DNA of 32,000 bases from Nostoc sp. PCC 7120 = FACHB-418 (GCF_000009705.1 NC_003272.1:2430001-2462000); one strand, 5' to 3'. Counted from the first letter of the stretch, positions 2,147 to 21,388 are shown. Program-made: numbers and translations. Notes: generated from the letters alone by a model not told the origin.

Positions 2147-2153
2147 ATTGCTA

Positions 2154-2942: not shown

Positions 2943-2953
2943 AAATTATATTT

Positions 2954-2976
2954 GGTAATGGGTAATTGGTGATTGG
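2954..2976. repeat. Short heptamer-type (STRR-like) repeat GGTAATGGGTAATTGGTGATTGG in an intergenic spacer
   Basis: Direct reading. The same GGTAAT(G/A)GG motif family recurs at 24454-24483 and, inverted, at 24500-24522. Confidence 0.6.
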
Positions 2977-2984
2977 AAAATAAA

Positions 2985-4361: not shown

Positions 4362-4381
4362 TTTTACAATGCAGACAAGTT

Positions 4382-4426
4382 TGATGATGATCAACGATAA
4401 AAAGCTTTTTCGTTGATCATCATCAC
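4382..4426. promoter_or_regulatory. Long near-perfect palindrome (15-bp arms plus inner AAAAAG/CTTTTT) between the AraC-type gene and the Cache-HAMP gene
   Basis: TGATGATGATCAACG-at-AAAAAG CTTTTT-CGTTGATCATCATCA, read directly. It lies 21 bp upstream of the preferred start (4361) of the sensor gene and about 110 bp downstream of the PAS-AraC stop. Confidence 0.5.
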
Positions 4427-4537
4427 CTCTAAAACACTCTGATAAAAAGGGAGACTAATAGATATTTAGCAGGTTAGAAGACACGAGATGGGAAAACAAT
4501 GCACAATCTTTTTATCGGACTCGCAATTTTTTCGTCT

Positions 4538-5383: not shown

Positions 5384-5913
5384 TGTAATTACTGAATTTC
5401 TAAGTGAACCTAATGAGCCTTAAGGTTATTTAACTGTAGAATTCAGGGTTTTACGTGAATATATGTATCTATTAGATTACATTTTAGTAATTAAATTTAC
5501 TAAAAAATACACATTAAAAATCTACCCTCTCCAGGGAAAAGAGATATCTTTAGCAGTTAGCGGCATTCATTTAGCGTTTTTCTTGGGAGCAAAGATGTTG
5601 TGCAGCTTCCCATAAGAAAAGCATCAGACCCAATCCAGAAAAACCGTCAGCTGATAAATGGCACCTACAGCCAAGTAAAATTTAATTGATTATTGTCTAT
5701 AAAAGTTTATATTTTTAGCCAATTCCTACTAATAGCAAAGACTAAATTTAATAATCATCCTAAAAAGATTCATCAAAGTATACACAAAGTTTCCTACTTT
5801 GGTGCATTGAAAATTTATAGAGAAAAAGAGTAGAGGTTAGGGGTGCTGAAACTGTTACAGAGCAACATAAATCAGCCACCCACCGGGAGTATCTGACGAC
5901 CCCGCAAAACATA

Positions 5914-7014
5914 CTAGCTTTTTTTTAGGGTATGACAAATTACGTTTCTAACTTCTATTTTAACCTCAGCATAAACTGCTAAAGTTTGTTGATTCACACG
6001 CCCAACCGTCAGTAATTCTAAATTTTGTTGTGCTTGATCTTGCCAATGTTTGAGCAGATGAGGTTGACTAAGTAATTTTGCTAGGGCATCTGCCAAAGCA
6101 GAGCTATCTTTTGGGGGAACTAAAACACCAGCTTTGCCATTGTCTAATGCTTCTGGAATGCCATCTACGCTGGTAGCGACGATCGCACAGCCGGCTTCAC
6201 GGGCTTCTGGAATTACCAGGGGAGAAGGATCACGGTGAGAAGCAAGTACAAATATATCTGCGGCTAATAAGTAGCGTTGTGGTTCTGGTTGGAAGCCTTC
6301 AAAATGAATGCGTGTATTGCTCAAACCTGTAGCTTGGGCTTTTTCCTCAAAAATCTGCCTTTCCGGGCCGTCTCCAACTAGATAAAGATGAACTTGGGGG
6401 AAATCTTGGGCAATCTGTGCAAAAGCAGCGATTAACTCACCAATGCCTTTACGCTGATACATCCCGGCTACAGTGGCGATCGCTGGTCGTTGTAATTCTA
6501 CTGGTGAGTACTCTTTAATATTACGAGTACGGACGCTGCCTAATGTCCCATTGGGTACTACTCGCAATTTATGCTCAGGAATACCACGCCTAGCCATTGA
6601 TTTAGCAACAGCATGACTCACCGCAATTACTCTATCTGCTAATCCCATGAGTACAGCACTGCGTTGAAATTCATTGTGTACTGTAGCCACCAAAGCATAT
6701 TCAGAATCAGCTTTAAGACATCTTCCCAGCACAACTCCCGTCATCATGTGAGCATGGACAATATCCGGTTGAAATTCTCGGATAATTGCGCGATAACGCC
6801 TAGCCGCATTAATTAAATTTAGGGGTGTCCGACTTTGGTTTAACTCAAAGTGTTTAACACCATATTGAGCAAATAATGTTTCATATTCTCCGCCAGCAGA
6901 TGCTACAGCTACATCATGATTGTTTTTGGCTTGCAGACAAGCTAAATCTACAGCCACATTCACGATGCCATTACCAATTTCGCGGACGTGATTCAAAATA
7001 TGTAGTATACGCAT
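5914..7014 (-). CDS. Glycosyltransferase family 4 (GT-B, group 1)
   Basis: MRILHILNHVREIGNGIVNVAVDLA is a typical GT4 N-terminus. The C-terminal segment is EX7E-like: LVIPEAREAGCAIVATSVDGIPEAL. The track ORF starts at 7065, but the conserved N-terminus begins at the ATG at 7012-7014. Confidence 0.85.
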   Translation of the reverse strand: MRILHILNHVREIGNGIVNVAVDLACLQAKNNHDVAVASAGGEYETLFAQYGVKHFELNQSRTPLNLINAARRYRAIIREFQPDIVHAHMMTGVVLGRCLKADSEYALVATVHNEFQRSAVLMGLADRVIAVSHAVAKSMARRGIPEHKLRVVPNGTLGSVRTRNIKEYSPVELQRPAIATVAGMYQRKGIGELIAAFAQIAQDFPQVHLYLVGDGPERQIFEEKAQATGLSNTRIHFEGFQPEPQRYLLAADIFVLASHRDPSPLVIPEAREAGCAIVATSVDGIPEALDNGKAGVLVPPKDSSALADALAKLLSQPHLLKHWQDQAQQNLELLTVGRVNQQTLAVYAEVKIEVRNVICHTLKKS

Positions 7015-7083
7015 AAAAATAATTTTTATTCTAGTTCCACAAAAGAAATCTTTAGTTTGTGACAATGATCCGGAAGTTCTTTT

Positions 7084-7116
7084 AGATCCCCGACTTCTTG
7101 AAGAAGTCGGGGATCT
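7084..7116 (-). terminator. Strong GC-rich stem-loop downstream of the NHL-repeat gene (possible terminator or RNA-stability element; no U-tract)
   Basis: AGATCCCCGACTTC-TTGAA-GAAGTCGGGGATCT is a perfect 14-bp stem. It lies 12 bp after the stop of the 7128-9371 gene. The flanks are not U-rich on either strand, so it is not a canonical intrinsic terminator. Confidence 0.4.
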
Positions 7117-7127
7117 ATCTGGTTAAT

Positions 7128-9371
7128 TCACCCAGGTAATCGATACATCAACACCTTTCCTTTAGCGTTCTCTTCCACAAATACTAAATACTCACCATTG
7201 GCACGACGAAAAGCGCGAATGCCGTAGGGGATATCAATCCAGCCGCTTTCGCCTCCTACTTCTGCACCTGGTGTTAACATTTGCAATGCTTCCCCTGTGG
7301 TGGCTTTATAGACATAAACTTCCGCTTTTTTACTAGCAACGGCAAAAACTCTATCTCCTGCCACATCAATTGATTTGATATGTAATTTGGGGTCTGTTTG
7401 ATGATTATAAGGAAGCACTATTCGCCACCGGAGGTTTCTTTTTTTACTCCAGTTGTCGTAACGAACTATTTCTGTACCAACTAATCCCCAATCACCATCA
7501 AGGTTAGGATGTTCATTGGTGTAGCCTCCAAGATACATAACATCTTGTTTGGGGAAGTATTTGATTCTTGTCAAAGTTTTGAAAGGTGCTGGCATGGGTA
7601 TTCTGCCCCCAACAGCTTGTCCATAAATGGGACAGCCATGATTATCTAATTTTTGATAGGGATAGTGTTTAATGTAGCCAGCTTCGGCCGCTTGCCAAAT
7701 ATCTCCTTTGCTGTCTATTTCCCAACCCCAGACAGAACCATCTTCTTCACCCAAGGTTTTGTATTCGTTGTTTTGGATGGAACCATCACCATTCACATCC
7801 CGCCATAACCAGCTACCGTCTTTTGGTTGGTTAGGAGGCCAACTGAGATGATTTTTGCCAAAAATGCCGCAGGGAACAGCTATCTCACCATCAAAACGGT
7901 ATATCAACAGCCGTTCTGCCATCATTTCTGAGGAGAGATAGAGTAGGCGTTTTCCACCCAAGCGACGGACAAAAGCTGATGTGGGTGTGGTGTGGAGTCG
8001 TCCATCATCTGGGTAGCGGAACTTATCTAAGGTATATCCTTTATATGTCCACTCTTTGCCGTTGTTTTTGCTGTAGTCCATGACGAAGTGTTCGTTTTTG
8101 GTGAACACGTCTCTACCATCGCTATCAGGATCAGCATCGGCGTTATCTATGAATTGCAAACCGAGTAAGCGCCACTGGAGTTTTCCCGATGACGAGAATT
8201 TTCTCAAGTCAGCACCAGTACTATTAAAACCATGATTGCTAACGTAGATATTGCCGCTTTTATCTGTGCCGACTCCGGTAATACCATACAGTTTCCCGTC
8301 TTTGACTTCGCCAGAAGTACCCCCATAGATACCGCCTTTATCACCGAGAGTGCCTACCTGTTTTGGTTTATTGGCGATGTTATAAATTAGTACTTGCTGA
8401 CGTTTCCCATTATCAGCTACCAGTAATCTACCTTGAGGATCAAAGGCGATCGCACTTGGGTTGGCAACATCGGTGATTTGTTGGGCTAATTGCTTACCTT
8501 GAGGCGAATATCGGACTATTTTTTTCTTTTGCACAACCCATAAGTTATTTTGCCGATCAACGGCGATCGCACCAGGATTAGGAACGCTAAAGCTGCGTAG
8601 TTCCTGCATGGTATCTGTATTGTAAACGCGGAGGCGATCGTTGGCAGGATCACTTACATATAACTCTTTGTCTTTAGTTGCTAGTCCAGTAACGTCATTT
8701 TTACTATTGACAATGAGCATACTTTTATCCCAACCACGCCCTCCAGCAAAGGGCGCAGGTTTTCCAGACAAGTCATAGCGTCGGACATTGTACCAAGTGG
8801 TTCCCTTGGGCGGGTAATCATCTTCTGGTTTGCCTTCGTGGGATTGCCGCATAGCTACATAGAGGTACTTTTGATTGGCTGTAATTGCTTTACCTCCCAA
8901 CCTTCCCCAACCATGTAAGTCATCAGCTTTACCAATCACATCCCCATCTTTATAAATACCTACTTCTCTACCAGCTTCATCCCAATGACTATTTACATAA
9001 ACTGTGCCATTGGGAGTAACATATATACCCTCCATTTGAATTTGTACCCACTTTTTACCACCAAAAGTGTTACCTATCCAAGAGGTTTTATACGCTGCTT
9101 TATTTGAGGTTTTATGCGATTGTTTATCAGTTTGCTGTGCAGATGATTTATGAGTTATTTTCTCAGTAGTTGTTGGTAGTATATTAACAATTCCAGATAT
9201 ATTACTGCTTAAGGGATTAATAATTACCACCATAACTATAGTAAGTATCAAAAGGTATACTTTCAAACTCCGAAAGTTTTTATTGCGAGACAGTTTTTGG
9301 AAATACCGTCTACAGCTTTGGTAAAAATTATCAAACTGTGGAGCTAATTTTTTTTCCATAAAATTATGCAA
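7128..9371 (-). CDS. Secreted or membrane-anchored NHL-repeat beta-propeller protein (unknown function)
   Basis: 747-aa ORF with an N-terminal hydrophobic anchor (LKVYLLILTIVMVVIINPL). Repeated NHL-like blades are GAIAVDRQNNLWVV, SAIAFDPQGRLLVADNG and GVGTDKSGNIYVSNHG. A Ca-binding-like DVNGDGS loop is also present. Confidence 0.6.
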   Translation of the reverse strand: MHNFMEKKLAPQFDNFYQSCRRYFQKLSRNKNFRSLKVYLLILTIVMVVIINPLSSNISGIVNILPTTTEKITHKSSAQQTDKQSHKTSNKAAYKTSWIGNTFGGKKWVQIQMEGIYVTPNGTVYVNSHWDEAGREVGIYKDGDVIGKADDLHGWGRLGGKAITANQKYLYVAMRQSHEGKPEDDYPPKGTTWYNVRRYDLSGKPAPFAGGRGWDKSMLIVNSKNDVTGLATKDKELYVSDPANDRLRVYNTDTMQELRSFSVPNPGAIAVDRQNNLWVVQKKKIVRYSPQGKQLAQQITDVANPSAIAFDPQGRLLVADNGKRQQVLIYNIANKPKQVGTLGDKGGIYGGTSGEVKDGKLYGITGVGTDKSGNIYVSNHGFNSTGADLRKFSSSGKLQWRLLGLQFIDNADADPDSDGRDVFTKNEHFVMDYSKNNGKEWTYKGYTLDKFRYPDDGRLHTTPTSAFVRRLGGKRLLYLSSEMMAERLLIYRFDGEIAVPCGIFGKNHLSWPPNQPKDGSWLWRDVNGDGSIQNNEYKTLGEEDGSVWGWEIDSKGDIWQAAEAGYIKHYPYQKLDNHGCPIYGQAVGGRIPMPAPFKTLTRIKYFPKQDVMYLGGYTNEHPNLDGDWGLVGTEIVRYDNWSKKRNLRWRIVLPYNHQTDPKLHIKSIDVAGDRVFAVASKKAEVYVYKATTGEALQMLTPGAEVGGESGWIDIPYGIRAFRRANGEYLVFVEENAKGKVLMYRLPG

Positions 9372-9823: not shown

Positions 9824-10363
9824 TCATAGCCTAATTATAAAACTATCCCTGATGTGAAAGTCAGCTTCTTTACCTGGATGAACTAAAGCCCAGTAAGTTA
9901 TCTTGCCATCTTTTTGTTTGATAACTGTAGTAATTGCGACATCAATAAGTTGTTCAGGAGAAATAATTCTTTCTAAATCGACATTCAATGACATTTCCAA
10001 ACTATCTGAGTAATTTTCAATACTAAAAGGTAGTGCAGTAAAAGCTGTTTCTTCCTGCATTCCTTGGCGATATCCATGAAAGCGGTATATATTCCAATTT
10101 CGAGAGGGAGAGAGGTTGAATTCCCAATACTGTTGAGAATCTTTAATACCAATAAAGAACTCAAAACAAGTATCTTGCCATAGTTCATGTTTTCTTGTTG
10201 GTATGTCTACAGACGAAGGAATCTCAACTGGTGCTAATTCACCAACAACCTGATAATTAATAGTGAGTTGATTATTATGGCGGCTAATATTACCAGCAAT
10301 TTTGAGATCAACTAAAGATTCCTCCGAGGGGAATGGTTGTAGAGAAAATATCTGGTGACTCAT
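9824..10363 (-). CDS. DOMON-like / CBM9-like small beta-sandwich protein (tentative)
   Basis: 179-aa ORF. Its start overlaps the upstream kinase stop by 4 nt (ATGA). The motif region HELWQDTCFEFFIG...YWEFNLSPSRNWNIYRFHGYR resembles the cyanobacterial DOMON-like family, recognised from memory rather than by search. Confidence 0.5.
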   Translation of the reverse strand: MSHQIFSLQPFPSEESLVDLKIAGNISRHNNQLTINYQVVGELAPVEIPSSVDIPTRKHELWQDTCFEFFIGIKDSQQYWEFNLSPSRNWNIYRFHGYRQGMQEETAFTALPFSIENYSDSLEMSLNVDLERIISPEQLIDVAITTVIKQKDGKITYWALVHPGKEADFHIRDSFIIRL

Positions 10364-11478
10364 TTTATATCTTGAATAATTTTACGAATCTTGACTTCTT
10401 GAGATTCGATACTTTCTGTCAGTTTAAATTGCACAAGCGCCCTGGCTAAATTATGTTCTGGGTACTTGATTTTAAAGTAAACATTCCCCCCTAAGTAGTC
10501 AGCAAAGAATCTCAGTCCTAACTCAAAGGCGATGAGGCGTATAGCATCATACATATATGCGTAATCGTTATCGGTGAGAAATTCCTTTGCTACCGACAGA
10601 TAACCTTGTAAAATTCCTTGACATAAATCAGTGTCAAAAGCAACGCTTTCCCAATGTTCTGTTTCTTCCCCAGCAGGGTTACAGCCCGATCGCAAACAAT
10701 CACCAATGTCATAATGTACTAGACCGGGTTTAACCGTGTCGAGGTCGATAACGCTGACGGCTTTGTGAGTAAAAGTATCAAACATAATATTGTTAATTTT
10801 AGGATCGCCGTGCATGAGACGTAACGGCAACTCACCCGCAGCTTTAGCATTTTCTAGGATACAGGCATAACTTTGGCGATCGCTCACAAATTGCAAGCAA
10901 TAATCTAATTCTGGGGATGGTTGCGGTTTAGCTGTTGCCAAAACCTGTTCATAGTGACGCAAGTAAAGCGGCGTAATATGGAATCCTGGCAAAGTATCAG
11001 CCAGTTTTTCTGGTGATAAGTCGCTGATTAAGTTGTGAAACATCCCCAAGGCATAGCCGATTTCTTGAGCTTGTGCCAAATCTTGCATGGTGTCGAAAGA
11101 TTGCGACCCAGAAATAAAGCTAATCGCTCGCCAGAAATTCCCTTGAGTATCTGTGCAGTAATCGTGATTATCTTTGGTGGAAAGTACGCGCGGAACTTCC
11201 CAACGACGGTTCGGGGGGGCGTATTGTAGACGTTGATGAACATGATCACTAAAGATACGCATATTCTGCATGATCAGTTCAGGTTGACGAAACACTTGAG
11301 TGTTTATCCGTTGCAGAACAAAATGCTGTGCTTCTAAGGAATCAACAGTTACTAAAAAAGTATCGTTAATATTGCCACTACCAAAGGCTTGAACATTTGT
11401 TACTGTACCTGGAAACTTGAATTTCCCGGCAATGGCAGCTAAATCTACTACAGACTGCGTGCTGATAACTTCTGTCAT
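10360..11478 (-). CDS. APH/protein-kinase-fold phosphotransferase (NahK-like sugar or small-molecule kinase)
   Basis: The catalytic-loop motif LMHGDPKINNIMFD is followed by VIDLDTVKPGLVHYDIGD (the DxD metal-binding segment of the aminoglycoside/choline-kinase fold). Length is 372 aa. Confidence 0.75.
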   Translation of the reverse strand: MTEVISTQSVVDLAAIAGKFKFPGTVTNVQAFGSGNINDTFLVTVDSLEAQHFVLQRINTQVFRQPELIMQNMRIFSDHVHQRLQYAPPNRRWEVPRVLSTKDNHDYCTDTQGNFWRAISFISGSQSFDTMQDLAQAQEIGYALGMFHNLISDLSPEKLADTLPGFHITPLYLRHYEQVLATAKPQPSPELDYCLQFVSDRQSYACILENAKAAGELPLRLMHGDPKINNIMFDTFTHKAVSVIDLDTVKPGLVHYDIGDCLRSGCNPAGEETEHWESVAFDTDLCQGILQGYLSVAKEFLTDNDYAYMYDAIRLIAFELGLRFFADYLGGNVYFKIKYPEHNLARALVQFKLTESIESQEVKIRKIIQDIK

Positions 11479-11828
11479 ATTTAACTTTTACTACTCCCCA
11501 CAAAAACTGCACAATGGCAATTAGGAGACATAGTAACTCAAGTTTTACGCCGCATTATTCCTTTTAGTTGAAATACTGTGAAGATTAATGGAAACCTTAT
11601 CGTAAATTCAAGGGTTAAAGACCCCTCTCTTACAAAGTTCTGAGGGACGGAAGCCGGGATCTTGCTACAAACTTTGCGCTACATCTACACGTAGTATCAG
11701 TTGAGTTGGGGTAAAACATCCCCGACTCCAACTGTCTTTAATTTTGTTCGCCTTTGAAATATGCGTAGGGTGGGCAAAGCTAGCCAATCTTCTTGTTGAG
11801 ATAGTATTTGCGGATCAGTATTGTCAGG

Positions 11829-11865
11829 TCAATACAGTTGTTATAGTCAGCTATGACTGTATTGA
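11829..11865. other. 10-bp-arm inverted repeat inside a roughly 960-bp gene-free region
   Basis: TCAATACAGT-(17 nt)-ACTGTATTGA, read directly. No adjacent U-tract. Confidence 0.3.
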
Positions 11866-12436
11866 ATGTGATTGCTATACTTGCGATCGCTTCATCAATA
11901 ATTCTGATTCATTCCATAGATAGATTTAGCAAAACCCATCGGCAGAAAGTTTTTACACTTAGAAGCTTAGTATAAAATTTTTCTTAAGATATTTGCTTGA
12001 TGGAGGCGATCGCCTAATCTAAGTCTTGACTCGTCTCATCATGAATTGTGCTGATTATTGGACTATATAATAATCATTAACGATTTTGGAATGAGTAGAT
12101 TTACCACCAATAAAATATGCAAAATAAAAAATGTTAATTTCTTGCTAAACATTGATGATAATGGATCACAGGATGTATGCTTCATGCCATAGTACATTAT
12201 TAAGCCAAAATTTATAATCTAAATTTTATTTTTTATATTGTTATGATTACGTAGACATAAGGCATTTAATATAGGAAATATTTCTAAGAAAATTTTAAGC
12301 ATATTTATAAATATTATTTAAACTTACGCAAATCCACTGAACACTATAGAGACGTGACATTCCTAAATTGTCTAGTTAATATATAACTTGATATATCACT
12401 TATTACATTCCTCCAGTTAATGGGTTAGGAAGTCGA

Positions 12437-12679
12437 ATGTCTCGCCAAAAGAAAATAATATTTGCACAACCAAAAATCGGTCAATTCATTCAAGAAATTA
12501 GGCTGGTTATGGGTTTAACCCAAGAAGAGTTTGCGGTAATTCTTGGTGTAACTTTTCCTACTGTAAATCGTTGGGAAAATGGGCATACTAAACCTTCAAA
12601 ACTCGCTATTCAACAAATAGAAGCTTTGGTAGATAAGCTTGGTGAAGATGGTCAAAATATTTTGGCTAAATATCACTGA
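12437..12679 (+). CDS. XRE-family helix-turn-helix transcriptional regulator (80 aa)
   Basis: IQEIRLVMGLTQEEFAVILGVTFPTVNRWENGHTKPS is a classic Cro/C1-type HTH_3 pattern. GGAAG sits 6-10 nt upstream of the ATG. Confidence 0.85.
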   Translation: MSRQKKIIFAQPKIGQFIQEIRLVMGLTQEEFAVILGVTFPTVNRWENGHTKPSKLAIQQIEALVDKLGEDGQNILAKYH

Positions 12680-12744
12680 AAATAGATTCATTACCCATTA
12701 ATTTCCAGAAAAAGTCATAAATTTATGACTGGAGACATCTATCC

Positions 12745-14571
12745 ATGAATTTTAATTACTTGAGATATTTTTTGAAATTTACTTCAATACCCAGTATTTG
12801 TCTCTTGTTGATATTATCAATTTCTCATTTTTCTAGGGTATTGGCTCAAAATCCCAAAGGTGGAATTGACTGGATTGTAGTAGTAGATACTTCTGCTTCC
12901 ATGCGCGGTGTTGGCGGGACAAGAAATATCTTTACTCAAGTCAAAAATTCTATTAATGAATTTGTTAATACTGCCAGAGTAGGGGATACAGTTACTATTT
13001 ATAATTTCGATAGTGATGTAACTTTGCAAGCTCAAGAAATTCCTATTGCCAGCAATCCAGACCGGGGTAAACTCAAACAAATAATTAATAACCTCAAAGC
13101 TGATGGTGTGCGTACTCACACAGGGAAAGCAGTACAACAAGCGCTCTCTACTTCTGCAAAATTGAATCAACGTCCTAATACTGCGGATAGGACTGTGAGT
13201 ATAGTTTTCCTAACAGATGGATTGGAAGATGTCCAAGGTATTCCTAATCCTGTGCCGATTCCTCAAAGTACGCAACTTTTACGGGAACAAGAATGTAAAC
13301 CTTATGTATTTTTCGTATCTTTAGGATTGAAAGAACACGAAAAACAATTAAATGAATTTGCCAGTAATCCCGCACTTTGTGGCAAAGGGCGCGTTTTGCG
13401 TGACCCTGGAGGAGTGCAATTAAACAAGTTGGCTCAAAATATTAGGCCAAGACTCATTAAACCCCAGATTGATGTTAGTTTATCTACTGTTGATTTGCCG
13501 CCTGTATTGCCAGGTACAACTACAAAAGCACTAAATATTAATAGCATCAGTAATGTCAATGCTAAAGTGAGGTTGCAACTAAAAGACATAGAAAAAAGTG
13601 GTATTCGCCTAGTTTTGCCTAGCACAATTGACTTAGCAGCTAATCAACAAAAAGTTATTCCTATAAGTTTACAAATTCCAGCAAATGCACAGGGAGGTAA
13701 TCGAAAATTGCGGTTTTTGTTAACAGCAACTGATAAAGCTATTGCCCCACAAGCTATTGATTTATCTTTAACGATTAAACCACAATTGTCAATGCAACCA
13801 AATAGCCTAAACTTCGATTCTGTAGAAGCAGGAAAAACTAGCCAAAAGCAAACTTTAGTAATTCGCAGCAATATATCTGGAACAGCTAGTTTACAACTGC
13901 AAGGCAAGACTAAAGATGTTTCTTTAAAGGAGCCTTCAACACCTGTATCTTTGGCAGTCGGAGAAACCAAAATCCCTATACAGCTTGAAGTTGCTGATAG
14001 TAGTTTTGATGGTAAGCGTACATTCAATGTAGTTGTTACTCCAGATCACCCCCTGACGAATCCCCTCAGTGCCGAAGTTCAGGTACGGATCTTAATGCCA
14101 CTGGGACGGAAAATCGTTATTTGGTTGCTATTGATATTACTGCTTTTCTTAATTACCTTAACCATAATTTGCTTGATTCAACGTAAAACTCCTTGGGAAT
14201 TAGCCCAAGATATTGGCACTCGCAACCATTTAGAAGGGGAACTAGAACTATTAGAACCAGTCCCCATATCACCAGAAGAACAATATATTAGCCTTACTCA
14301 CCAGCACAAGCAAAAAGTCAACTTGAGTGCATTAGTTCCAGCGATCGCCTCTACAAATAGTGATGCAGAATTAGTCATCAATTGGCAGTCTGGTAAAAAA
14401 TATGTATATGTACGGAGTTTAAGCGGTATTACTTTTGTCAATAATGAAAAGATAACTACATATCAACTTTACGATGAAGACACAATCCAGGTTGATAACG
14501 TAAAGCTGCGATTTAACTGGATTGGTAATCAACGGCCCTATGAACAAAACAGTGGGCTGACAGATTTTTAA
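12745..14571 (+). CDS. Transmembrane protein: signal peptide - vWA domain with complete MIDAS - beta-rich (Ig-like) repeats - TM helix - C-terminal FHA-like domain
   Basis: Signal-like N-terminus ICLLLILSISHFSRVLA/QNP. MIDAS DTSAS at residues 48-52 (nt 12886-12900), with downstream THTG and FLTDGLED. Two similar beta-rich segments span about residues 240-450. The TM helix is IVIWLLLILLLFLITLTIICLI (nt ~14113-14178). The C-terminal FHA-like strands are YVYVRSLSGITFVNNEKITTYQLYDEDTIQVDNVKLRF. Confidence 0.8.
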   Translation: MNFNYLRYFLKFTSIPSICLLLILSISHFSRVLAQNPKGGIDWIVVVDTSASMRGVGGTRNIFTQVKNSINEFVNTARVGDTVTIYNFDSDVTLQAQEIPIASNPDRGKLKQIINNLKADGVRTHTGKAVQQALSTSAKLNQRPNTADRTVSIVFLTDGLEDVQGIPNPVPIPQSTQLLREQECKPYVFFVSLGLKEHEKQLNEFASNPALCGKGRVLRDPGGVQLNKLAQNIRPRLIKPQIDVSLSTVDLPPVLPGTTTKALNINSISNVNAKVRLQLKDIEKSGIRLVLPSTIDLAANQQKVIPISLQIPANAQGGNRKLRFLLTATDKAIAPQAIDLSLTIKPQLSMQPNSLNFDSVEAGKTSQKQTLVIRSNISGTASLQLQGKTKDVSLKEPSTPVSLAVGETKIPIQLEVADSSFDGKRTFNVVVTPDHPLTNPLSAEVQVRILMPLGRKIVIWLLLILLLFLITLTIICLIQRKTPWELAQDIGTRNHLEGELELLEPVPISPEEQYISLTHQHKQKVNLSALVPAIASTNSDAELVINWQSGKKYVYVRSLSGITFVNNEKITTYQLYDEDTIQVDNVKLRFNWIGNQRPYEQNSGLTDF

Positions 14572-14591
14572 AAAATATTAGAGGAAATTAA

Positions 14592-17324
14592 ATGTCACGT
14601 CCCACAGTTGTTTTTCGCCCTACTGTTGTCATCGGTTTAGGAGGTACGGGTTATGAAGTTGCACTCAAGTTGAAAAAGCGCTTCATCGATGTTTATGGCG
14701 ACGTACCAGACATTATTCGCTTTCTCTCTATTGATACCACTGAAAATATTCAAAGCCGGGAAAAATCACCTGATGGTACTAAGGTTGTTTTAGAACCTAA
14801 TGAACTTTATGCGATTTCCGTCGCTAATCCATTACCTTTAACGCGGAACGATCATATTGATGAATGGTGGCCGAGAAATATTCCCACATCCAGCTTGATT
14901 AGTGGTGCAGGTCAGATTCGCGCCCGTGGACGGTTGGCTTTCTTTGCAAAAGTAGGCGATATTAACGGTTTAATTAGTCAGGCGATTAATACTGTCCGCG
15001 AAATTCGCAGTAGTAAACAAGCATTCTTAGACAAATTTCAAGTATCTAATCGTGATGGTGTGGAAGTTTTTATTGTTGGTAGTTTAGCTGGAGGAACGGG
15101 TAGCGGTACTTTTCTAGATGTGGCATTTTTAGCCAGACAATATCTTAATAGCTTTTCCAATGTTACGGGATTATTTGTATTACCTAGAGTATTTGCCAAT
15201 CTTCCCCAAACTCATCTAGTAAAATCCAATGCTTATGGCGCTCTCAAAGAAATTGAACACTTTTGGAATTTGTCACCATCTAATCCTTTAGAGATTGATT
15301 ATGGTATTACCAAAGTCAAAGCCGATCGCCCTCCTTTCGATGCAGTATTTTTGATGGATGGTGTGAACAAAAATGGTACTGTAGTTAGCCGTCCTAACGA
15401 CTTACAAAATTTAATCGCCGATGGTTTGTATATTCAAATTGGCTCTCAAATTGGTCTAGATGCTGCCAACGTTGCTGATAATATTCGTGCTTATTTGGCA
15501 GTTGGAGAGAAAGTCCGAGGACGAAATATAAATTATTGTAGTTTTGGCTTTGCTACTTTGGCTTTGCCAGTACAGCAGTACGAGCGAATGAAACTAGAAG
15601 ACACGCAGAACTTATTGAAAAACGAGTTGATGGCTGCTACTGCAAATATTGATATAGCCAGCGAAATTGAGCGTTTTTTACAAGATTGCAAATTAGCAGA
15701 AGCTACTACCGTATTAGATAGTTTGACAGAGAGCGATCGCGGTGGACAAGTCAAACCAGAATTCAGAATCGGGGAAATGAAATATGACCGCGCATCTTTA
15801 CCGACTATCAAAGAACTTTACAAGCGACAGTTGGATCAAATGGAGCAAAGGACGGCTAAAGATTTGGCGATGAATTTTTATCGCTTAGAACAGACTGCAA
15901 CTACTACTATTGAGGCTTGGTTGGAGCGTAGTCTGAATCGTCCCAATGGTCTAGCTTCTACTCTAAAATTCGTGAGTAGTCTTTATCAAAAGATAGATGA
16001 GTTACAGCAGAATGTACAGCGCAAATCTAAAGAAGCTCAATCTAATTTTTCCACTTTAAAATTAGAACCCCAAGAAGAAAAAATTAAAGAAGCCGCCGAA
16101 GCTTGGTTTCCCAATAAGAATACTATTCAAGCAGCTTGTCAGAGATATAAAGAACGGGCTGACCAAAAGTGGCGGATATACTTACACTGGAAACGCTGTG
16201 ATAAGGCGGCGGAACTCTGCGGTATGCTGCGGACTAGAATAGAAAAAATTCAGGAACAATGTCAACGCATACACAGCAACCTAGATAAAGTTTATCGAGA
16301 TGTAGAACAAAGTTACGCCGAAGTTAGCCGCCAAGGAAATTCTGATAATCCGTTTATCCATACTATTCAACGCGTTGATTTAGAATCGAAACGCCCCAAA
16401 GTTAGTGGTGAAGACTTTATCCGTTGGTATCGAGAAAAGTCTCAAAGTTTAACTAATTGGTCTGAGAAAAAGGCAGAAGATGTGAAAGATGAAATCTTAG
16501 CCTTTATGGATGAAACTTATCGTCCACTCACTAGTATGAATATTGAGCAAGTATTAGCAGATAGTAACCCAGAAGATGCGGGAGAGGATTTACAGCAACT
16601 TGGTAAACTTGCAGTTCCTTTGTGGCAATATCAAGATTCCGAAATTCCTGCTAAACAGCAACACGTCATTACAGAATTTTATTACTACGGAGTCGAAAGT
16701 AACAACACTATTTTTAGTAATCCCCCGCTTTCTAATCGTCTACCTAAAGGCAAAGGTAATGTTTCTTTTGTACCAACAGGTGAACCTCATAAACTCACAC
16801 TGTTTCGTATAGAAATAGGTGTACCTTTGTTTACTCTGAATGGGATGAAAGATATGGAGATGGCTTATCTAGATCCAGATAAGGTCTTCAAACATTTGCA
16901 CCGTAATTGGACGAATTTAGCAAATTTAATTCCTCCAGAAGATGACGGCGGAGCGCTGCGTTGGTTTGCTTTAGCTTTAGCACCTAATCCATATTCATTA
17001 ATTGTCAATGAGAGGAAGCAATATTTTGTCCATACAGACCAAGCAAGAAAATTAGAAGGTGGAACTTTGTTGTTGGGAGATGACCGCAAATCAGCATTTA
17101 AAGCTTTCAAAAACAATGTTTCTTTAGTTAAAGAAATTGCTCAGAAAGTCGATAAAATTACCCACCAAGACAAAGAAAAAGCGAGATTTTCTCTAGAGAG
17201 CTATATTAAGCAAGTTAATGAGCTTTTAAAGAATAATAGAGTCGGTCTGCCAATCAAAGAACAGGTGGAAATGGAAATTCAAGAAATTGATGCCTATTTA
17301 GAAGATTTGGATGTGATTAGCTAA
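14592..17324 (+). CDS. Large tubulin/FtsZ-superfamily GTPase ('tubulin-like', Tubulin_2-type) with a helical C-terminal extension
   Basis: T1-like loop VVIGLGGTGYEV (G15-G20, nt 14634-14651). Tubulin signature T4 loop IVGSLAGGTGSGTFLDVA (GGTGSG = residues 167-172, nt 15090-15107). A GAGG-containing RBS lies 9 nt upstream, and the gene starts 20 bp after the vWA gene. At 910 aa it is far longer than FtsZ or TubZ. Confidence 0.8.
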   Translation: MSRPTVVFRPTVVIGLGGTGYEVALKLKKRFIDVYGDVPDIIRFLSIDTTENIQSREKSPDGTKVVLEPNELYAISVANPLPLTRNDHIDEWWPRNIPTSSLISGAGQIRARGRLAFFAKVGDINGLISQAINTVREIRSSKQAFLDKFQVSNRDGVEVFIVGSLAGGTGSGTFLDVAFLARQYLNSFSNVTGLFVLPRVFANLPQTHLVKSNAYGALKEIEHFWNLSPSNPLEIDYGITKVKADRPPFDAVFLMDGVNKNGTVVSRPNDLQNLIADGLYIQIGSQIGLDAANVADNIRAYLAVGEKVRGRNINYCSFGFATLALPVQQYERMKLEDTQNLLKNELMAATANIDIASEIERFLQDCKLAEATTVLDSLTESDRGGQVKPEFRIGEMKYDRASLPTIKELYKRQLDQMEQRTAKDLAMNFYRLEQTATTTIEAWLERSLNRPNGLASTLKFVSSLYQKIDELQQNVQRKSKEAQSNFSTLKLEPQEEKIKEAAEAWFPNKNTIQAACQRYKERADQKWRIYLHWKRCDKAAELCGMLRTRIEKIQEQCQRIHSNLDKVYRDVEQSYAEVSRQGNSDNPFIHTIQRVDLESKRPKVSGEDFIRWYREKSQSLTNWSEKKAEDVKDEILAFMDETYRPLTSMNIEQVLADSNPEDAGEDLQQLGKLAVPLWQYQDSEIPAKQQHVITEFYYYGVESNNTIFSNPPLSNRLPKGKGNVSFVPTGEPHKLTLFRIEIGVPLFTLNGMKDMEMAYLDPDKVFKHLHRNWTNLANLIPPEDDGGALRWFALALAPNPYSLIVNERKQYFVHTDQARKLEGGTLLLGDDRKSAFKAFKNNVSLVKEIAQKVDKITHQDKEKARFSLESYIKQVNELLKNNRVGLPIKEQVEMEIQEIDAYLEDLDVIS

Positions 17325-17410
17325 TACATAACGGTGTAAATCAAGCAAATATTTTCACTGTTACTCAGCCAAAACCAGCATTTAAAATTCCGCGTAGTGG
17401 TACTAGCCTC

Positions 17411-20400
17411 ATGCCAAAACCAACTATCTTACTTGCACTCGATCCTCACAGTACGGCTTTATGTGCAGCTATCAAGCGGCAACTCCCACAACTTCCTAAC
17501 CCCCAAAGTCGCTTAATTCAGGCTTACACTCTGACTTGGGACGGTCAAACTTTTGGGTTTAGTAATGAGTTAGATTCTTTTGCCGATGCGAGTTTTGACC
17601 TCACACTCACCAACCCTAGACAAACTGCTGTCTCCCAACTGCGTCACCAGTTTAAAGAAGGGGCTAAAGACCTGCAAACTACCTTAATTGATTTAATTAA
17701 ATCAGTTAACCAATCTCCAGAAGCGATCGCCGCGAAAAATGCTGGAGTTGATATCAGTTCTTGGTATAGAATCTATATCATGTTCTCAGCCAACGACCAT
17801 CGGGCGCGAGAACTGGTATTTGAACTATCCCGCTTGATTCATTGGCTATTTAATGTCTACTTTGCTGACGTTCCCCATAGTTTGGAAGCTTTATTACTCT
17901 TACCAGGATTATTTGCTCAAGCCAGAACTGAGGATTATAGTGCGGCTTATCAACTCCTGAAGGAATTAGACGACAAAATGACTAAAGGAGTTGTCATTAG
18001 GGGTACTCAAAAAAGACCTCCTTTTGATAATTGTTGGCTGATTGACGAACGAATTGGGGAACTAGGAGTCAATTTAGATAGTTATGCTGATGCTTTTGCA
18101 GGTTTCTTGACTGTCGAACCGGAGACAGGTGGATTGTTGATTGGGGCGCATACAATCCGGGGAAAACTTCCTGCTTACAGTACCTTTGGCTATGGGGAGT
18201 TATTTTTTCCTGCACAGACAGTTGTAGATCGTTTGAGTACAGCGTTAGCAGCCGATATTATCACCCAGGAGTTTCTCCCCTCAGCAAAACTCACTCCTGA
18301 AGCAAATCGCCAATTACTATTAGATGCTAAAGAATTTGTCCTCAGCGAAGATTATAACGATGCTTTGCAGCAATTAGAACGAGACAACGGTAAACCAGTT
18401 TGGCAAGATTTCAGCCCCCGTCTTGATATTCGTCCCGGCCAGACACAAGAATATGGGATGGAATTGCAATGTGCTTATAAGCAATTTGAAAATAAAGAAC
18501 TGATTTCATCTAAGCGCACTCTAGAAATTTGTGGTAAACAAGCACAAGCCACCTTAACCAAACTCTTAGACCAGAAGATTAATCAATATGCGGATGCTGC
18601 AACTAGTGGCTTACATGAAGCTGTTAGATTATCTACTGTTTTGAATAATCCTTATTTGGAATTGCAAACAGAGTCTATTAGCGATCACCCAGAAAATCTG
18701 ATTACAGAACTACGCGCCGCCGAATCATTTTTAGATACTCGGTTGCAGATCACAATCAACAAAGAAAATAGTCAAAAGCTACTCAATCAATTCTTCACAC
18801 TCAAATCCCAAAGACAACAATTACAAGACACGATAGCTGAGACTAATTCGGAAGCACTCACCCAAGAGTTACAGAAAATTCAAGAACAATTAAAAGTAGC
18901 TGTTTCCGACTATCACCAAGCTATAAATGCAGAACTCGAACAAACTAGACAAACCCGCTTATTAGCAATTGAAGATGCTCGTTCCAAGGCACAAACAGCG
19001 ATTAGTCAGGCACAAAAACAGTTAAATTATTTAGAAAATCAACATGAAATAGCTACAGATCAATTAAATGAATTGATAGCAGAAGAAAACCGTTTTCGTT
19101 CTCTATATCTCATAGTTTTTCCTGCTGTCGTTGCTATTGCCTTAATTGGGATTTTGCTGCTCACCGGGCTTTTCAGCCAATCAACCCTTTGGATATTATT
19201 ACAACAGATAGGGGTCAACTTATTGAATTACATACTTTGGGGTTTAGTTAGTGTACTCAGTTACTTAGGTATAGTTTGGCTGAAGTACAGTACCAGTATC
19301 CGCGATCGCATTCAAAAAGTTCAGAAGCAAATCAAACGCCTAGAAAGTAGTTTAAAAGCTACTGGTGTGGAATTACGCCGTAATTATAATGACCAATTAA
19401 AGTTAGAATATGACCTCTATGCTCAAAATATCCGCGTTGAAGTAGCGAATCATTTGATTAAAACATCTAAACAAAAGACTGAGATTTTACGGCAAAGTTT
19501 ATCTAATTTTTCTCAAATATATGATATTTTAATTGCTCAACATGATAAAGCCTCGACAAATTATTCGGAAACTAGATTAGCTATTTTAACAAACTCAGAT
19601 ATCGATATTTATTATCATCAAAATATTCTCAAAACTCTACCCATTAATAAATTTACCCAAGAAGAAGTTAGTCGTTCTCAATCATGGCAAATTTCGTCCA
19701 CAGAATTTCAGAACAAACTGGATTTGTTTGCCAGAAAGCAGTTTGAACATTTAAGTAAGTTATCCATTGGAGACGTTTTAAAATCAGATTTGATCGCAGA
19801 AAATACAGCTAGTATTAGATTAAATCAACTTTATAACAGTGCGAAGCTCTTGTTGCGTCTTCAAGATAGTGATGCTCACTTAAACCCAACTTCTCAACCA
19901 GAAATTACACTTTGGGTAGGAGCAAAAGATAAAGAAGAAATACTCCGACTTTATAGTCGCTTTAGCCGTTCTTTAACTCCCTATGTCGCGGAAGACGAAA
20001 GTAGTTTATGCGTTTTGGTACGTTCTTTAGGTTTTCCGATTTACTTTCTCAGTCAAATAGAGTTTTATCGAGACTGTTATGAACGTACTCAGAAAGAACA
20101 AGAGGAAAATATTCCCGACTTAATTCCTGAAGAAATTAGTTCTAGTCGAGAATTAATTTGGGCTTATGATACTCTGTTGCTAGCGATCGCTCTGGAATTA
20201 TTGTCTCAAGACACTCACGGTAACTATCAATTCAATGGTCAATTACTTGGTCAAGAACGAGAAAAAATTGCCTCGGCTCTTGCAAATGAGTTCAGCCATC
20301 AAGAATTATATGGAGAACTCAAAGAACGTATAGAGGCGTTTGAACAAGATTTAATTTACCAGCAATTAGAAAAATCTGAAAAATCTGTCCCAGGTTTAAC

Positions 20401-20458
20401 GCATTACGAACGCAAGCGTTTAAATCATCTATTGTCAAAGTATAGTCCTCTAAACTAG
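17411..20458 (+). CDS. Degenerate (GTP-loop-less) paralog of the upstream tubulin-like protein, with a long coiled coil and a two-helix membrane hairpin
   Basis: It aligns by eye with the 910-aa protein along its whole length. The pairs are ILLALDPHSTALC vs VVIGLGGTGYEVA, IYIMFSANDHRARELVFELSRL vs VFIVGSLAGGTGSGTFLDVAFL, RPPFDNCWLIDE vs RPPFDAVFLMDG, YSTFGYGELFFPAQ vs YCSFGFATLALPVQ, and LCVLVRSLGFPIYFL vs LTLFRIEIGVPLFTL. TM helices are LYLIVFPAVVAIALIGILLLTGLF and NYILWGLVSVLSYLGIVWL (nt ~19103-19285), flanked by Q/E/L-rich heptad-like sequence. Confidence 0.75.
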   Translation: MPKPTILLALDPHSTALCAAIKRQLPQLPNPQSRLIQAYTLTWDGQTFGFSNELDSFADASFDLTLTNPRQTAVSQLRHQFKEGAKDLQTTLIDLIKSVNQSPEAIAAKNAGVDISSWYRIYIMFSANDHRARELVFELSRLIHWLFNVYFADVPHSLEALLLLPGLFAQARTEDYSAAYQLLKELDDKMTKGVVIRGTQKRPPFDNCWLIDERIGELGVNLDSYADAFAGFLTVEPETGGLLIGAHTIRGKLPAYSTFGYGELFFPAQTVVDRLSTALAADIITQEFLPSAKLTPEANRQLLLDAKEFVLSEDYNDALQQLERDNGKPVWQDFSPRLDIRPGQTQEYGMELQCAYKQFENKELISSKRTLEICGKQAQATLTKLLDQKINQYADAATSGLHEAVRLSTVLNNPYLELQTESISDHPENLITELRAAESFLDTRLQITINKENSQKLLNQFFTLKSQRQQLQDTIAETNSEALTQELQKIQEQLKVAVSDYHQAINAELEQTRQTRLLAIEDARSKAQTAISQAQKQLNYLENQHEIATDQLNELIAEENRFRSLYLIVFPAVVAIALIGILLLTGLFSQSTLWILLQQIGVNLLNYILWGLVSVLSYLGIVWLKYSTSIRDRIQKVQKQIKRLESSLKATGVELRRNYNDQLKLEYDLYAQNIRVEVANHLIKTSKQKTEILRQSLSNFSQIYDILIAQHDKASTNYSETRLAILTNSDIDIYYHQNILKTLPINKFTQEEVSRSQSWQISSTEFQNKLDLFARKQFEHLSKLSIGDVLKSDLIAENTASIRLNQLYNSAKLLLRLQDSDAHLNPTSQPEITLWVGAKDKEEILRLYSRFSRSLTPYVAEDESSLCVLVRSLGFPIYFLSQIEFYRDCYERTQKEQEENIPDLIPEEISSSRELIWAYDTLLLAIALELLSQDTHGNYQFNGQLLGQEREKIASALANEFSHQELYGELKERIEAFEQDLIYQQLEKSEKSVPGLTHYERKRLNHLLSKYSPLN

Positions 20459-20561
20459 TTATCTTCGGGAAGTGTTGACTAAATAAAACCCTCAAGGCTA
20501 GTAAAAAAGATAGAGTAATTATCCTGGAACGATTAATCATAAATAATTTCTCAGTTTCTAT

Positions 20562-20598
20562 TTGTAGAGAGGTTTAACTTCTCTACAATGGTTTTGTT
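20562..20598 (+). terminator. Candidate rho-independent terminator of the 12437-20458 cluster
   Basis: TTGTAGAGA-(9 nt)-TCTCTACAA is a 9-bp stem followed by TGGTTTTGTT. It lies about 100 bp after the stop at 20458. Confidence 0.5.
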
Positions 20599-20626: not shown

Positions 20627-21388
20627 ATGAAGACCAACACATCAAGTTACAACTCTTGGGTAATTTGTCCCAAGCCAAATCCTGTAGCGGCTTTGCGTTT
20701 ATTTTGCTTTCCTTATGCGGGTGGTAGTTCTTTTATCTTTCGCACTTGGTCAAATTATCTACCTGCATCTGTAGAGGTGTGTGCTATTGAACTTCCTGGG
20801 CGAGGAAGACAAATGCAGTTAGCGCCTTTTCACAAGATGGAACCGCTTGTGGATGCGATCGCCTCCGCTATCTACCCATATTTAGACAAGCCATTCGCCT
20901 TCCTGGGACATAGCATGGGTGGCTTGGTCAGCTTTGAAGTGGCGCGTTTCCTGCACAAACAGTATGATATTCACCCGGTTCACTTGTTTATATCCGGTCG
21001 TCGCCCCCCACACATTCCCGATTTACATCCACCTATTCATAATCTACCCGAACCAGCTTTTATAGAAGAACTACGCCATCTCAACGGTACACCATCGACA
21101 GTATTAGAAAATGCAGAACTAATGCAGCTATTTTTGCCGATTTTACGAGCTGATTTTGCAGTTTTAGAAACTTATATTTATACTCCTGAATTACCTTTAG
21201 AATGTCCCCTTACAGTTTTTGGCGGATTACAAGATTCGGAAGTTAGTTGTGATGAGTTGCAAGCATGGCGAGAGCAGACAAAGGCTGACTTTAACTTACA
21301 TATATTCCCCGGCGACCACTTTTTTCTGCACTCGGCTCAATCTCTTGTACTCGAACAATTGGCTAAATATTTGTCTATGAATGTTTAA
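20627..21388 (+). CDS. Type II (external, editing) thioesterase of the NRPS/PKS-associated family
   Basis: LFCFPYAGGSSFIFRTW, nucleophile elbow GHSMGG and C-terminal FPGDHFFL are hallmarks of the GrsT/TEII alpha/beta-hydrolase family. Length is 253 aa. Confidence 0.85.
   Translation: MKTNTSSYNSWVICPKPNPVAALRLFCFPYAGGSSFIFRTWSNYLPASVEVCAIELPGRGRQMQLAPFHKMEPLVDAIASAIYPYLDKPFAFLGHSMGGLVSFEVARFLHKQYDIHPVHLFISGRRPPHIPDLHPPIHNLPEPAFIEELRHLNGTPSTVLENAELMQLFLPILRADFAVLETYIYTPELPLECPLTVFGGLQDSEVSCDELQAWREQTKADFNLHIFPGDHFFLHSAQSLVLEQLAKYLSMNV

Follow-up and report, generated by a model that had tools for sequence, protein, structure and literature searches.

A conserved three-gene locus of Nostoc sp. 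PCC 7120 combining a vWA receptor, a tubulin-like GTPase, and its predicted membrane-anchored, nucleotide-loop-deficient paralog

We analyzed a 32,000-nucleotide stretch of the Nostoc sp. PCC 7120 = FACHB-418 chromosome (GCF_000009705.1, NC_003272.1:2430001-2462000; hereafter the window, with positions counted from its first nucleotide) and identified in it a locus, alr2042-alr2044, encoding a type-I membrane receptor with a von Willebrand factor A (vWA) domain, a tubulin-like GTPase of the FtsZl1/Tubulin_2 family (Tub), and a predicted membrane-anchored paralog of that GTPase deficient in nucleotide-binding loops (Par). The conserved unit consists of these 3 genes (vWA-Tub-Par) and not of the 4, including the upstream asr2041, that had been proposed in an earlier note made from the sequence alone. 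The receptor, the GTP-loop-competent tubulin-fold protein, and the loop-deficient anchored paralog are obligately co-inherited. The reading that we prefer, tentatively and with a probability of roughly 45%, is that the triad carries out receptor-gated, GTP-dependent assembly of Alr2043 on the membrane anchor Alr2044, with membrane or envelope remodeling as its output. Sixteen years on from its description, the FtsZl1/Tubulin_2 family is without an assigned activity, structure, or phenotype, and this locus is a compact 3-protein version of it in a genetically tractable model, Anabaena PCC 7120.

All 4 open reading frames (ORFs) lie on the + strand, separated by spacers of 65, 20, and 86 bp, exactly as the earlier note had described. 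The first, asr2041 (12437-12679), encodes an 80-aa XRE-family helix-turn-helix protein (HTH_3 [PF01381], 2.5e-11), followed by alr2042 (12745-14571; 608 aa, the receptor), alr2043 (14592-17324; 910 aa, the GTPase, without a transmembrane [TM] segment), and alr2044 (17411-20458; 1015 aa, the paralog). To place these genes in context, 84 loci were gathered by exact-protein look-ups and a scan of 1 genome per GTDB species, and annotated by phmmer. Wherever a retrieved locus reached far enough, the vWA, Tub, and Par genes followed one another in unchanged order and orientation, so the gene order is not a matter of chance. The triad was identified in 3 clades, namely Nostocales, Pseudanabaena with related Oscillatoriales, and Acidobacteriota (Pyrinomonadaceae, Blastocatellia, and Thermoanaerobaculia). 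Most Nostocales loci have 20 nt between the vWA and Tub genes, and in several others the 2 genes overlap by 4 nt. Across the 84 loci, only vWA, Tub, and Par are conserved while the flanks vary, and the genes flanking the locus in PCC 7120 (an APH kinase, a thioesterase, and a Kef-type antiporter) are not kept even in close relatives. A homolog of asr2041 stands beside the triad in only 6 of ~64 Nostocales loci (L005, L031, L033, L036, L042, and L069 of our set), and no XRE gene was found next to the triad in any Pseudanabaena or Acidobacteriota locus retrieved. We therefore place asr2041 outside the core as a lineage-specific accessory, so that of the 4-gene system first proposed, the triad, syntenic over phyla, has held and the XRE gene has not.

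The Tub proteins fall into 3 deep, roughly equidistant clades with a mutual identity of 42-47% (neighbor-joining, without bootstrap), the Nostocales proteins being as distant from those of Pseudanabaena as from those of Acidobacteriota; within Nostocales, identity is 73-93%. These sequence comparisons give hints of an old horizontal transfer of the triad. The Par family is a rare one: the library of 1.84 billion representatives holds 190 clusters of it at 50% identity.

Several individual neighborhoods deserve mention. A gene for a retropepsin-like and TIR_2 protein lies directly upstream of the triad on a non-cyanobacterial metagenome contig (L002, 4666-6132), and the TIR gene is absent from a close relative of that locus (L068) with the same Iso_dh/TonB-receptor context. 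In a Blastocatellia metagenome-assembled genome (L075), a gene for a NACHT-HEAT STAND NTPase (3640-7155) occupies the position directly upstream of the triad. In 31 Nostoc loci without the XRE gene (L006-L030 and similar), a conserved same-strand ORF of ~975 aa was identified ~0.7-4 kb upstream of the vWA gene; its start is GAF-type-sensor-like by resemblance, and its position may reflect local Nostoc synteny only.

Alr2043 carries a tubulin-like GTPase domain at aa 12-332 (14625-15587, + strand), matched by Pfam Tubulin_2 (PF13809) at 215.3 bits against a cut-off of 27 (E 1.9e-63). The T1 loop GLGGTG (aa 15-20; 14634-14651, + strand) and the T4 loop AGGTGSG (aa 166-172; 15087-15107, + strand) can be read directly in the translation, and both are invariant in 22 homologs, including those from Acidobacteriota. 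Because a search of PDB sequences with the family profile yielded no tubulin, the fold was examined by structure prediction. The 8 best Foldseek PDB matches of the AlphaFold2 (AF2) model (predicted local distance difference test score [pLDDT], 82.5) were to CetZ2 (1.2e-5), gamma-tubulin, CetZ1, Asgard AtubA/B, TubZ, and OdinTubulin, with E-values from 1.2e-5 to 8e-3 and probabilities of 0.99-1.0. On this predicted structure, the tubulin/FtsZ fold of Alr2043 is supported. The canonical Pfam Tubulin family (PF00091) reached 14.9 bits against its 33-bit cut-off, over aa 151-199 only, and a Pfam scan gave no match to FtsZ_C or Tubulin_C in Alr2043. The failures of PF00091 and of the PDB profile search are to be expected, since Makarova & Koonin 2010 (PMC2875224) place FtsZl1 among the branches of the tubulin superfamily that have diverged furthest.

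The AF2 layout of Alr2043 comprises an alpha/beta region (aa 11-346), long helices (aa 402-580), a mixed alpha/beta region (aa 589-830), and further helices. The helical, coiled-coil-like stalk (aa ~402-580; 15795-16331, + strand) is predicted with a pLDDT of ~90 and is made up of helices at aa 402-448, 453-488, 492-503, and 509-580. It weakly resembles the tripartite alpha-pore-forming toxins AhlB/AhlC, SmhB, and MakE (Foldseek E ~1e-2, probability up to 0.97), a resemblance that could be generic helical-bundle similarity. The C-terminal mixed alpha/beta domain (aa 563-858; 16278-17165, + strand) is common to Alr2044, and in many non-cyanobacterial Tub orthologs it contains a RecA_C (PF21096) match (for example, aa 807-860 of the acidobacterial P0131, 3.1e-8) that stays below threshold in Alr2043. 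An invariant loop, QIGxDxxNxxDN (aa 282-297; 15435-15482, + strand), follows the helix at aa 268-285 in a segment of low pLDDT, and it could be a candidate T7-like loop, one that Makarova & Koonin did not find in FtsZl1. Another motif considered for this role, RPPFDxxxLxD, was dropped, as AF2 puts it at a beta-strand (aa 251-256).

Alr2044 had no match of its own in Pfam, NCBIfam, PADLOC, or PHROG, and its BLASTP match to Alr2043 was marginal (E 9e-4), so profile methods were needed to establish the relationship of the 2 proteins. Using hhalign, the C-terminal domain of Alr2044 (aa 692-982; 19484-20356, + strand) was found to be homologous to aa 563-858 of Alr2043 (probability 98.2%, E 3.3e-14, 262 aligned columns), and aa 121-269 of Alr2044 aligned with aa 159-328 of Alr2043 (probability 96.3%, E 1.9e-9). 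The Alr2044-family profile also recovered genuine Tubulin_2 proteins from the 1.84-billion-protein library (E 6e-22 to 9e-9). Pfam Tubulin_2 matched 2 of 22 Par orthologs (3.7e-5, 23.6 bits), under its 27-bit gathering score, and did not match Alr2044 itself. By these profile comparisons, Alr2044 is a true, ancient paralog of Alr2043 in both its N- and C-terminal domains.

The degenerate tubulin-like N-domain of Alr2044 (aa 1-270; 17411-18220, + strand) has ALDPHST in place of T1 and SANDHRA in place of T4. A MAFFT alignment across phyla identified the same losses in every clade of the Par family: T1 is replaced by ALDP[HFY][SA]A, T4 is variable and without glycines, a segment of ~50 aa with GAGQVRARGRL is deleted, and the loop QIGxDxxNxxDN is likewise deleted, with a conserved EPE motif instead. 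Scaffold motifs common to Tub and Par include LLLPxLF, AYxLLKELD, PPFDxxWLID, and RGKxPxYSxFGYxELxFP. Since T1 and T4 are replaced in every Par clade, Alr2044 is regarded as a pseudo-GTPase relative and not as a functional FtsZl1 member. No N-terminal signal sequence was identified in Alr2044, and a TM hairpin (aa 567-585 and 604-622; 19109-19276, + strand; Kyte-Doolittle peaks of 2.9 and 1.84) lies inside its helical middle, so both globular domains are predicted to be cytoplasmic. This hairpin occupies the region equivalent to the toxin-resembling stalk of Alr2043.

Alr2042 consists, in order, of a signal peptide, a vWA domain with a metal ion-dependent adhesion site (MIDAS), 2 Ig-like domains, a TM helix, and a forkhead-associated (FHA)-like tail. 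The vWA domain (aa 44-220; 12874-13404, + strand; VWA_2 3.7e-15, VWA 1e-13) has an intact MIDAS motif (DTSAS, THTG, and LTDG), and the positions DxSxS, T, and D are kept in the vWA partners of Nostocales, Pseudanabaena, and Acidobacteriota. It is predicted to be extracytoplasmic because it is placed after an N-terminus (aa 1-35) that is signal-peptide-like (...VLA/Q). Two Ig-like beta-sandwich spacers (aa ~240-450; 13462-14094, + strand) are suggested by sub-threshold matches to FixG_C, Cep192_D4, and choice-of-anchor-D families, and domain-sized indels in the family alignment show that their number ranges from 0 to 2 depending on clade. The signal sequence, MIDAS, TM helix, and tail are conserved across the 3 deep clades, with the single TM helix (aa 457-479; 14113-14181, + strand; Kyte-Doolittle peak of 3.27) present in all of them.

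The predicted cytoplasmic tail of Alr2042 (aa 480-608; 14182-14568, + strand; 129 aa) was modeled alone by AF2 from a 16-sequence alignment (pLDDT 80.9, predicted TM-score 0.73). All 50 of the 50 Foldseek PDB matches listed for this model were FHA domains or FHA-domain proteins, including OdhI/GarA, Ki67, FhaA, DgcB, EmbR, MDC1, and TIFA (best E 1.4e-3, TM-score by target 0.6-0.7). At the sequence level, the isolated tail reached 16.9 bits (E 0.0086) against Pfam FHA (PF00498), under the gathering cut-off of 20.7 bits, and Pfam FHA matched 7 of the 16 tail-family members, all sub-threshold, with MU2_FHA matching 12 of 16. The tail profile searched against PDB sequences gave sub-threshold FHA matches only (Rv1747, E 0.2; Mu2, E 1.3) amid HisF noise. 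A hidden Markov model of the tail found the vWA partner in all distant loci (E 1e-8 to 1e-33). Canonical FHA domains bind phosphothreonine through a Gly-Arg after beta3, a Ser-x-x-His before beta5, and an Asn in beta6-beta7. In the tail consensus, read by eye and with residue mapping inferred, ISLT stands where GR is expected and (S)DAEL where SRxHA is expected; on account of its sub-threshold sequence scores and these apparent substitutions, we call the tail FHA-like and probably phospho-independent.

The earlier note had read the 3 products as a MIDAS vWA protein joined through 1 TM helix to an FHA-like tail, a 910-aa protein with the tubulin/FtsZ signature, and a 1015-aa paralog with destroyed G-loops and a TM hairpin, and each of these readings is borne out above. 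Its account of an FtsZ-like-1 family that was delineated by comparative genomics, co-occurs with vWA proteins, and was proposed to act in remodeling agrees with Makarova & Koonin 2010 (PMC2875224), who defined FtsZl1 together with vWA partners carrying an intact MIDAS, proposed a role in membrane remodeling, and reported Ser/Thr kinases, divergent GTPases, and OmpA-like proteins as frequent in FtsZl1 operons. The description of the locus as uncharacterized stood in part: no functional study was found, but the catalogue of 2010 already has the locus among its predicted FtsZl1-vWA operons. Additional file 5 of that paper (PMC2875224) lists asr2041 (2442437..2442679; XRE), alr2042 (2442745..2444571; vWA, COG2304), alr2043 (2444592..2447324; FtsZl1), and alr2044 (2447411..2450458; neighbor). 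Each of these coordinates exceeds the corresponding window position by 2,430,000, as does that of the FurC box described below. The idea of a filament or remodeling machine gated by an extracytoplasmic ligand, put forward in the earlier note as an inference, is a reasonable one.

In agreement with the FtsZl1 operons described in PMC2875224, Alr2043 has a tubulin-like domain at its N-terminus, then a coiled coil, and a further domain at its C-terminus, and its vWA partner is membrane-associated with an intact MIDAS. The tables of that study differ from our findings in that alr2044 is left unassigned, being given as 'same as Ava_4731', a coiled-coil protein, and was not recognized as an FtsZl1 paralog deficient in GTP loops; moreover, no FHA tail is described on the vWA partner, and no Acidobacteriota appear in the supplementary files. 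The commoner cyanobacterial FtsZl1 subtype (Ava_1848 type, PMC2875224) has other partners, the B7 family and an OmpA/MotB-like protein. Apparently new here are the third gene as a pseudo-GTPase paralog, the conserved FHA-fold receptor tail, and the compact triad in Cyanobacteria and Acidobacteriota.

In the mechanism that we favor, Alr2044 would be a GTP-independent membrane anchor or nucleator, pairing with Alr2043 via the N- and C-terminal domains that the 2 proteins share. GTP binding and hydrolysis by Alr2043 would drive its assembly or switching on the Alr2044 anchor, on the cytoplasmic side of the membrane. The FHA-like tail of Alr2042 would couple this assembly to what the vWA domain does outside the cell, namely metal-dependent adhesion or ligand binding. 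Such coupling, outside-in or inside-out, would be integrin-like, linking the envelope to a tubulin-like assembly, and the output may be membrane or envelope remodeling. In PCC 7120 only, transcription of the triad would come under the XRE protein and FurC.

Several observations weigh against this receptor-gated assembly. Makarova & Koonin 2010 (PMC2875224) could not confidently align the T6-H7-T7 and C-terminal tubulin elements in FtsZl1 and doubted that filaments form, and we found no experimental study of alr2042-alr2044 or of any FtsZl1 protein (GTPase, polymer, or phenotype) in the literature. The TM-scores of the Alr2043 model to real tubulins are moderate (0.34-0.48 by target length), and the PDB sequence search with its family profile returned coiled-coil noise only. 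The apparent departures of the Alr2042 tail sequence from the canonical phosphothreonine site, described above, tell in the same direction. The patchy cross-phylum distribution of the triad is no less consistent with an accessory or conflict role than with a structural role. Finally, in the PCC 7120 RNA-seq data of Flaherty et al. 2011 (Additional file 8), the change in reads per kilobase per million mapped reads for alr2043 was 2.2, 9.2, and 8.6 at 6, 12, and 21 h after nitrogen step-down, and that for alr2044 was 1.3, 0, and 1.1; asr2041 has placeholder values, and alr2042 is not listed. These low-depth, discordant values for alr2043 and alr2044 are too thin to decide operon structure. They do hold hints that alr2043 expression may increase in heterocyst development.

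A narrower form of the proposal, which we consider improbable, is an integrin-like device in which the co-assembly of Alr2043 with its nucleotide-free membrane paralog would depend on GTP and be controlled by the periplasmic MIDAS receptor through an FHA-like tail of phospho-independent type, the device acting on an outside cue either in remodeling or as a membrane-directed immune effector. If this is true, the device would provide the first case in prokaryotes of an active/pseudo tubulin pair whose polymer is built directly on a membrane.

Possible, though we lean against it, is that the triad is a conflict system of the defense or abortive-infection type. The vWA/Ig receptor would then sense an invader, an epibiont, or envelope damage and signal via the FHA-like tail, GTP-dependent multimerization of Alr2043 on Alr2044 would set a threshold, and the TM hairpin and stalk would disturb the membrane or arrest growth. 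Kaur, Burroughs, Iyer & Aravind 2020 (PMC7159879), in the section that treats these systems, class firmicute and actinobacterial neighborhoods with a tubulin of the same FtsZl1 lineage, a vWA protein, and a GAP1-N2 GTPase as conflict systems enriched in multicellular prokaryotes. According to the same section (PMC7159879), the tubulin domains there are fused to coiled-coil or alpha-helical C-termini, an extracellular vWA domain is carried on a membrane protein, Firmicutes have 2 tubulin-domain genes per locus, and action near the membrane is predicted, all of which resembles the present locus. The defining components there are nevertheless a GAP1-type TRAFAC GTPase that bears zinc ribbons and a protein with FNIII repeats; both are absent from the conserved triad, and that section of the paper describes neither an FHA-tailed vWA protein nor a loop-deficient, TM-anchored tubulin paralog. 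In Pfam scans of neighboring genes, no GAP1-type GTPase or FNIII component was identified beside the triad.

The genomic distribution can be argued both ways with respect to a conflict role. The rarity of the Alr2044 family (190 clusters), the 3 deep and roughly equidistant clades over 2 phyla (42-47% identity), and the variable flanks even among close Nostocales favor it, whereas within Nostocales the module is seemingly stably inherited (73-93% identity), the neighbors in distant loci are mostly housekeeping genes, and the window is not a defense island and has no mobile-element genes. The TIR-domain gene in L002 and the NACHT-HEAT STAND NTPase gene in L075, directly upstream of the triad in these 2 loci, the XRE regulator in some loci, and the weak likeness of the stalk to AhlB, AhlC, and SmhB (Foldseek E ~1e-2) would also fit such a role. 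However, PADLOC-DB 2.0 gave no match for Alr2042, Alr2043, or Alr2044 and a generic helix-turn-helix match only for Asr2041, PHROG gave none for the 3 large proteins, and no toxin or nuclease effector is recognizable in the triad.

We judge it unlikely that Alr2043 is a non-polymerizing GTPase switch, pairing with the pseudo-GTPase Alr2044 and relaying the state of Alr2042 to a target with neither filament nor remodeling. Regulatory pairs of 1 active NTPase and 1 inactive paralog are common. Makarova & Koonin 2010 (PMC2875224), who found the T6-H7-T7 and C-terminal tubulin elements not confidently alignable in FtsZl1, themselves allowed that it may form no filament, and both the PF00091 score (14.9 bits against a 33-bit cut-off) and the moderate fold likeness to real tubulins agree with it. 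On the other hand, Foldseek aligns Alr2043 with CetZ, tubulin, and TubZ over 330-390 columns, which extends beyond the nucleotide-binding half, the invariant QIGxDxxNxxDN loop after the helix at aa 268-285 lies at the probable position of a T7-like loop, and long stalks with a membrane anchor are more typical of assemblies. The last alternative, that the 4 genes are unrelated neighbors without a common function, is highly improbable and for the 3 core genes effectively refuted, because, although promoters might in principle lie in the spacers of 86 and 65 bp, the order is kept over 2 phyla while the flanks change, Tub and Par are paralogous, the FHA-like tail is on every vWA partner, and the vWA-to-Tub spacer is 20 nt or an overlap.

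The locus supplies an explicit parts list: a sensor outside the cell whose metal site is intact, a cytoplasmic adaptor fold, a GTP-competent subunit, and a membrane-anchored pseudo-subunit. With these parts, the vague prediction of 'membrane remodeling' becomes testable as polymerization, nucleation or capping by the dead paralog, tail binding, and structural versus defensive output. A structural and a defensive output alike would give the tubulin superfamily a new functional class, and the pair has a bearing on the origin of active/inactive paralog pairs, as in alpha/beta-tubulin.

Comparison with better-known systems delimits what is particular to the locus. The alpha/beta-tubulin and BtubA/BtubB heterodimers are made of 2 subunits that each bind GTP, and none of these subunits is a membrane protein. 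Like these, Alr2043 and Alr2044 are 2 adjacent tubulin-superfamily paralogs, a presumed pair with asymmetric nucleotide roles, but Alr2044 is without T1, T4, and the T7-like loop and has a predicted TM-hairpin anchor. In integrins, a MIDAS vWA/I-domain outside the cell is followed by 1 TM helix and by a short tail that is tied to the cytoskeleton on the inside. By functional analogy, the vWA domain of Alr2042 is joined via 1 TM helix to a small module on the cytoplasmic side, with genes for cytoskeleton-type proteins next to that of Alr2042; the homology is in the vWA fold only, however, the cytoplasmic module of Alr2042 being FHA-like and the partner class tubulin rather than actin.

Phospho-independent FHA-like domains occur in YscD/PrgH of type III secretion systems and in EssC/EccC of Esx systems, and kinase-signaling FHA domains in GarA/OdhI, FhaA, EmbR, Rv1747, and DgcB. 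Alr2042 shares with the bacterial FHA-domain envelope and kinase proteins the same fold in a cytoplasmic domain on a membrane protein; it differs from them in that its tail is under the Pfam FHA cut-off, the phosphothreonine-binding Arg, Ser, and His cannot be made out in its sequence, and there is no kinase in the triad. The bacterial dynamin-like proteins BDLP and DynA are built of a GTPase head, a stalk of helices, and a paddle that inserts into the membrane. The analogy here lies in a GTPase domain followed by a long helical stalk, in the hydrophobic hairpin that interrupts the stalk in Alr2044, and in the predicted action at the membrane, but the fold is that of tubulin and not of dynamin/TRAFAC, and Foldseek matches to BDLP were insignificant (probability 0.12-0.13).

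Regulation of the locus can be considered from its upstream region. The DNA preceding asr2041, noted earlier as ~960 bp, gene-free, and AT-rich, measures 958 bp (11479-12436) between asr2041 and the divergent all2040 (- strand; APH-type kinase) and is the presumed promoter region of asr2041. Its GC content is 0.38 and then drops to 0.28, compared with ~0.41 for the window; it contains no ORF of at least 60 aa, and the small ORFs there include nothing convincing. As promoter-like hexamers in this region were no more frequent than in shuffled sequence, no promoter is named. A FurC (PerR) box, CGTAATCATAACAATATAA, was identified inside the gap on the - strand (12233-12251), 185 nt 5' of the asr2041 ATG, as the one exact match in the window (chance expectation 0). 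This box corresponds to chromosome positions 2442233-2442251, and FurC binds the asr2041 promoter fragment in vitro in an electrophoretic mobility shift assay (PMC10406281), which is the sole experimental datum that we found for the locus. Through the FurC/PerR box, the locus is linked to the PCC 7120 regulon for peroxide and iron stress. Together, the XRE repressor and the FurC/PerR-bound promoter region, added in the PCC 7120 lineage only, suggest stress-linked transcriptional control of the triad.

At the other end, the hairpin and T-tract that had been reported at 20562-20598 (+ strand) were recovered as an intrinsic-terminator-like structure that starts 104 nt past the alr2044 stop codon. 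It has a 12-bp stem with a 3-nt loop (20562-20588), followed by TGGTTTTGTT, and it stands as a single terminator 3' of the last gene. No Rfam family matched in the whole window.

Among the other genes of the window, a type-II thioesterase gene (20627-21388, + strand; Thioesterase 1.8e-51) begins 29 nt past the terminator T-tract; it is not kept beside the triad elsewhere, and no nonribosomal peptide synthetase or polyketide synthase gene is present within the window. The APH-family phosphotransferase gene (10360-11478, - strand) overlaps a downstream 179-aa ORF (9824-10363, - strand) by 4 nt, and the pair is divergent from the asr2041 promoter region. Further away, 3 tightly spaced genes were identified on the - strand at 974-4394, encoding a dCache_1 and HAMP protein without a recognizable output domain (2985-4394), a ParA/MinD-like P-loop protein (2154-2942), and a DUF7005 protein (974-2146; E 7.5e-173), and these could form a separate small signaling module.

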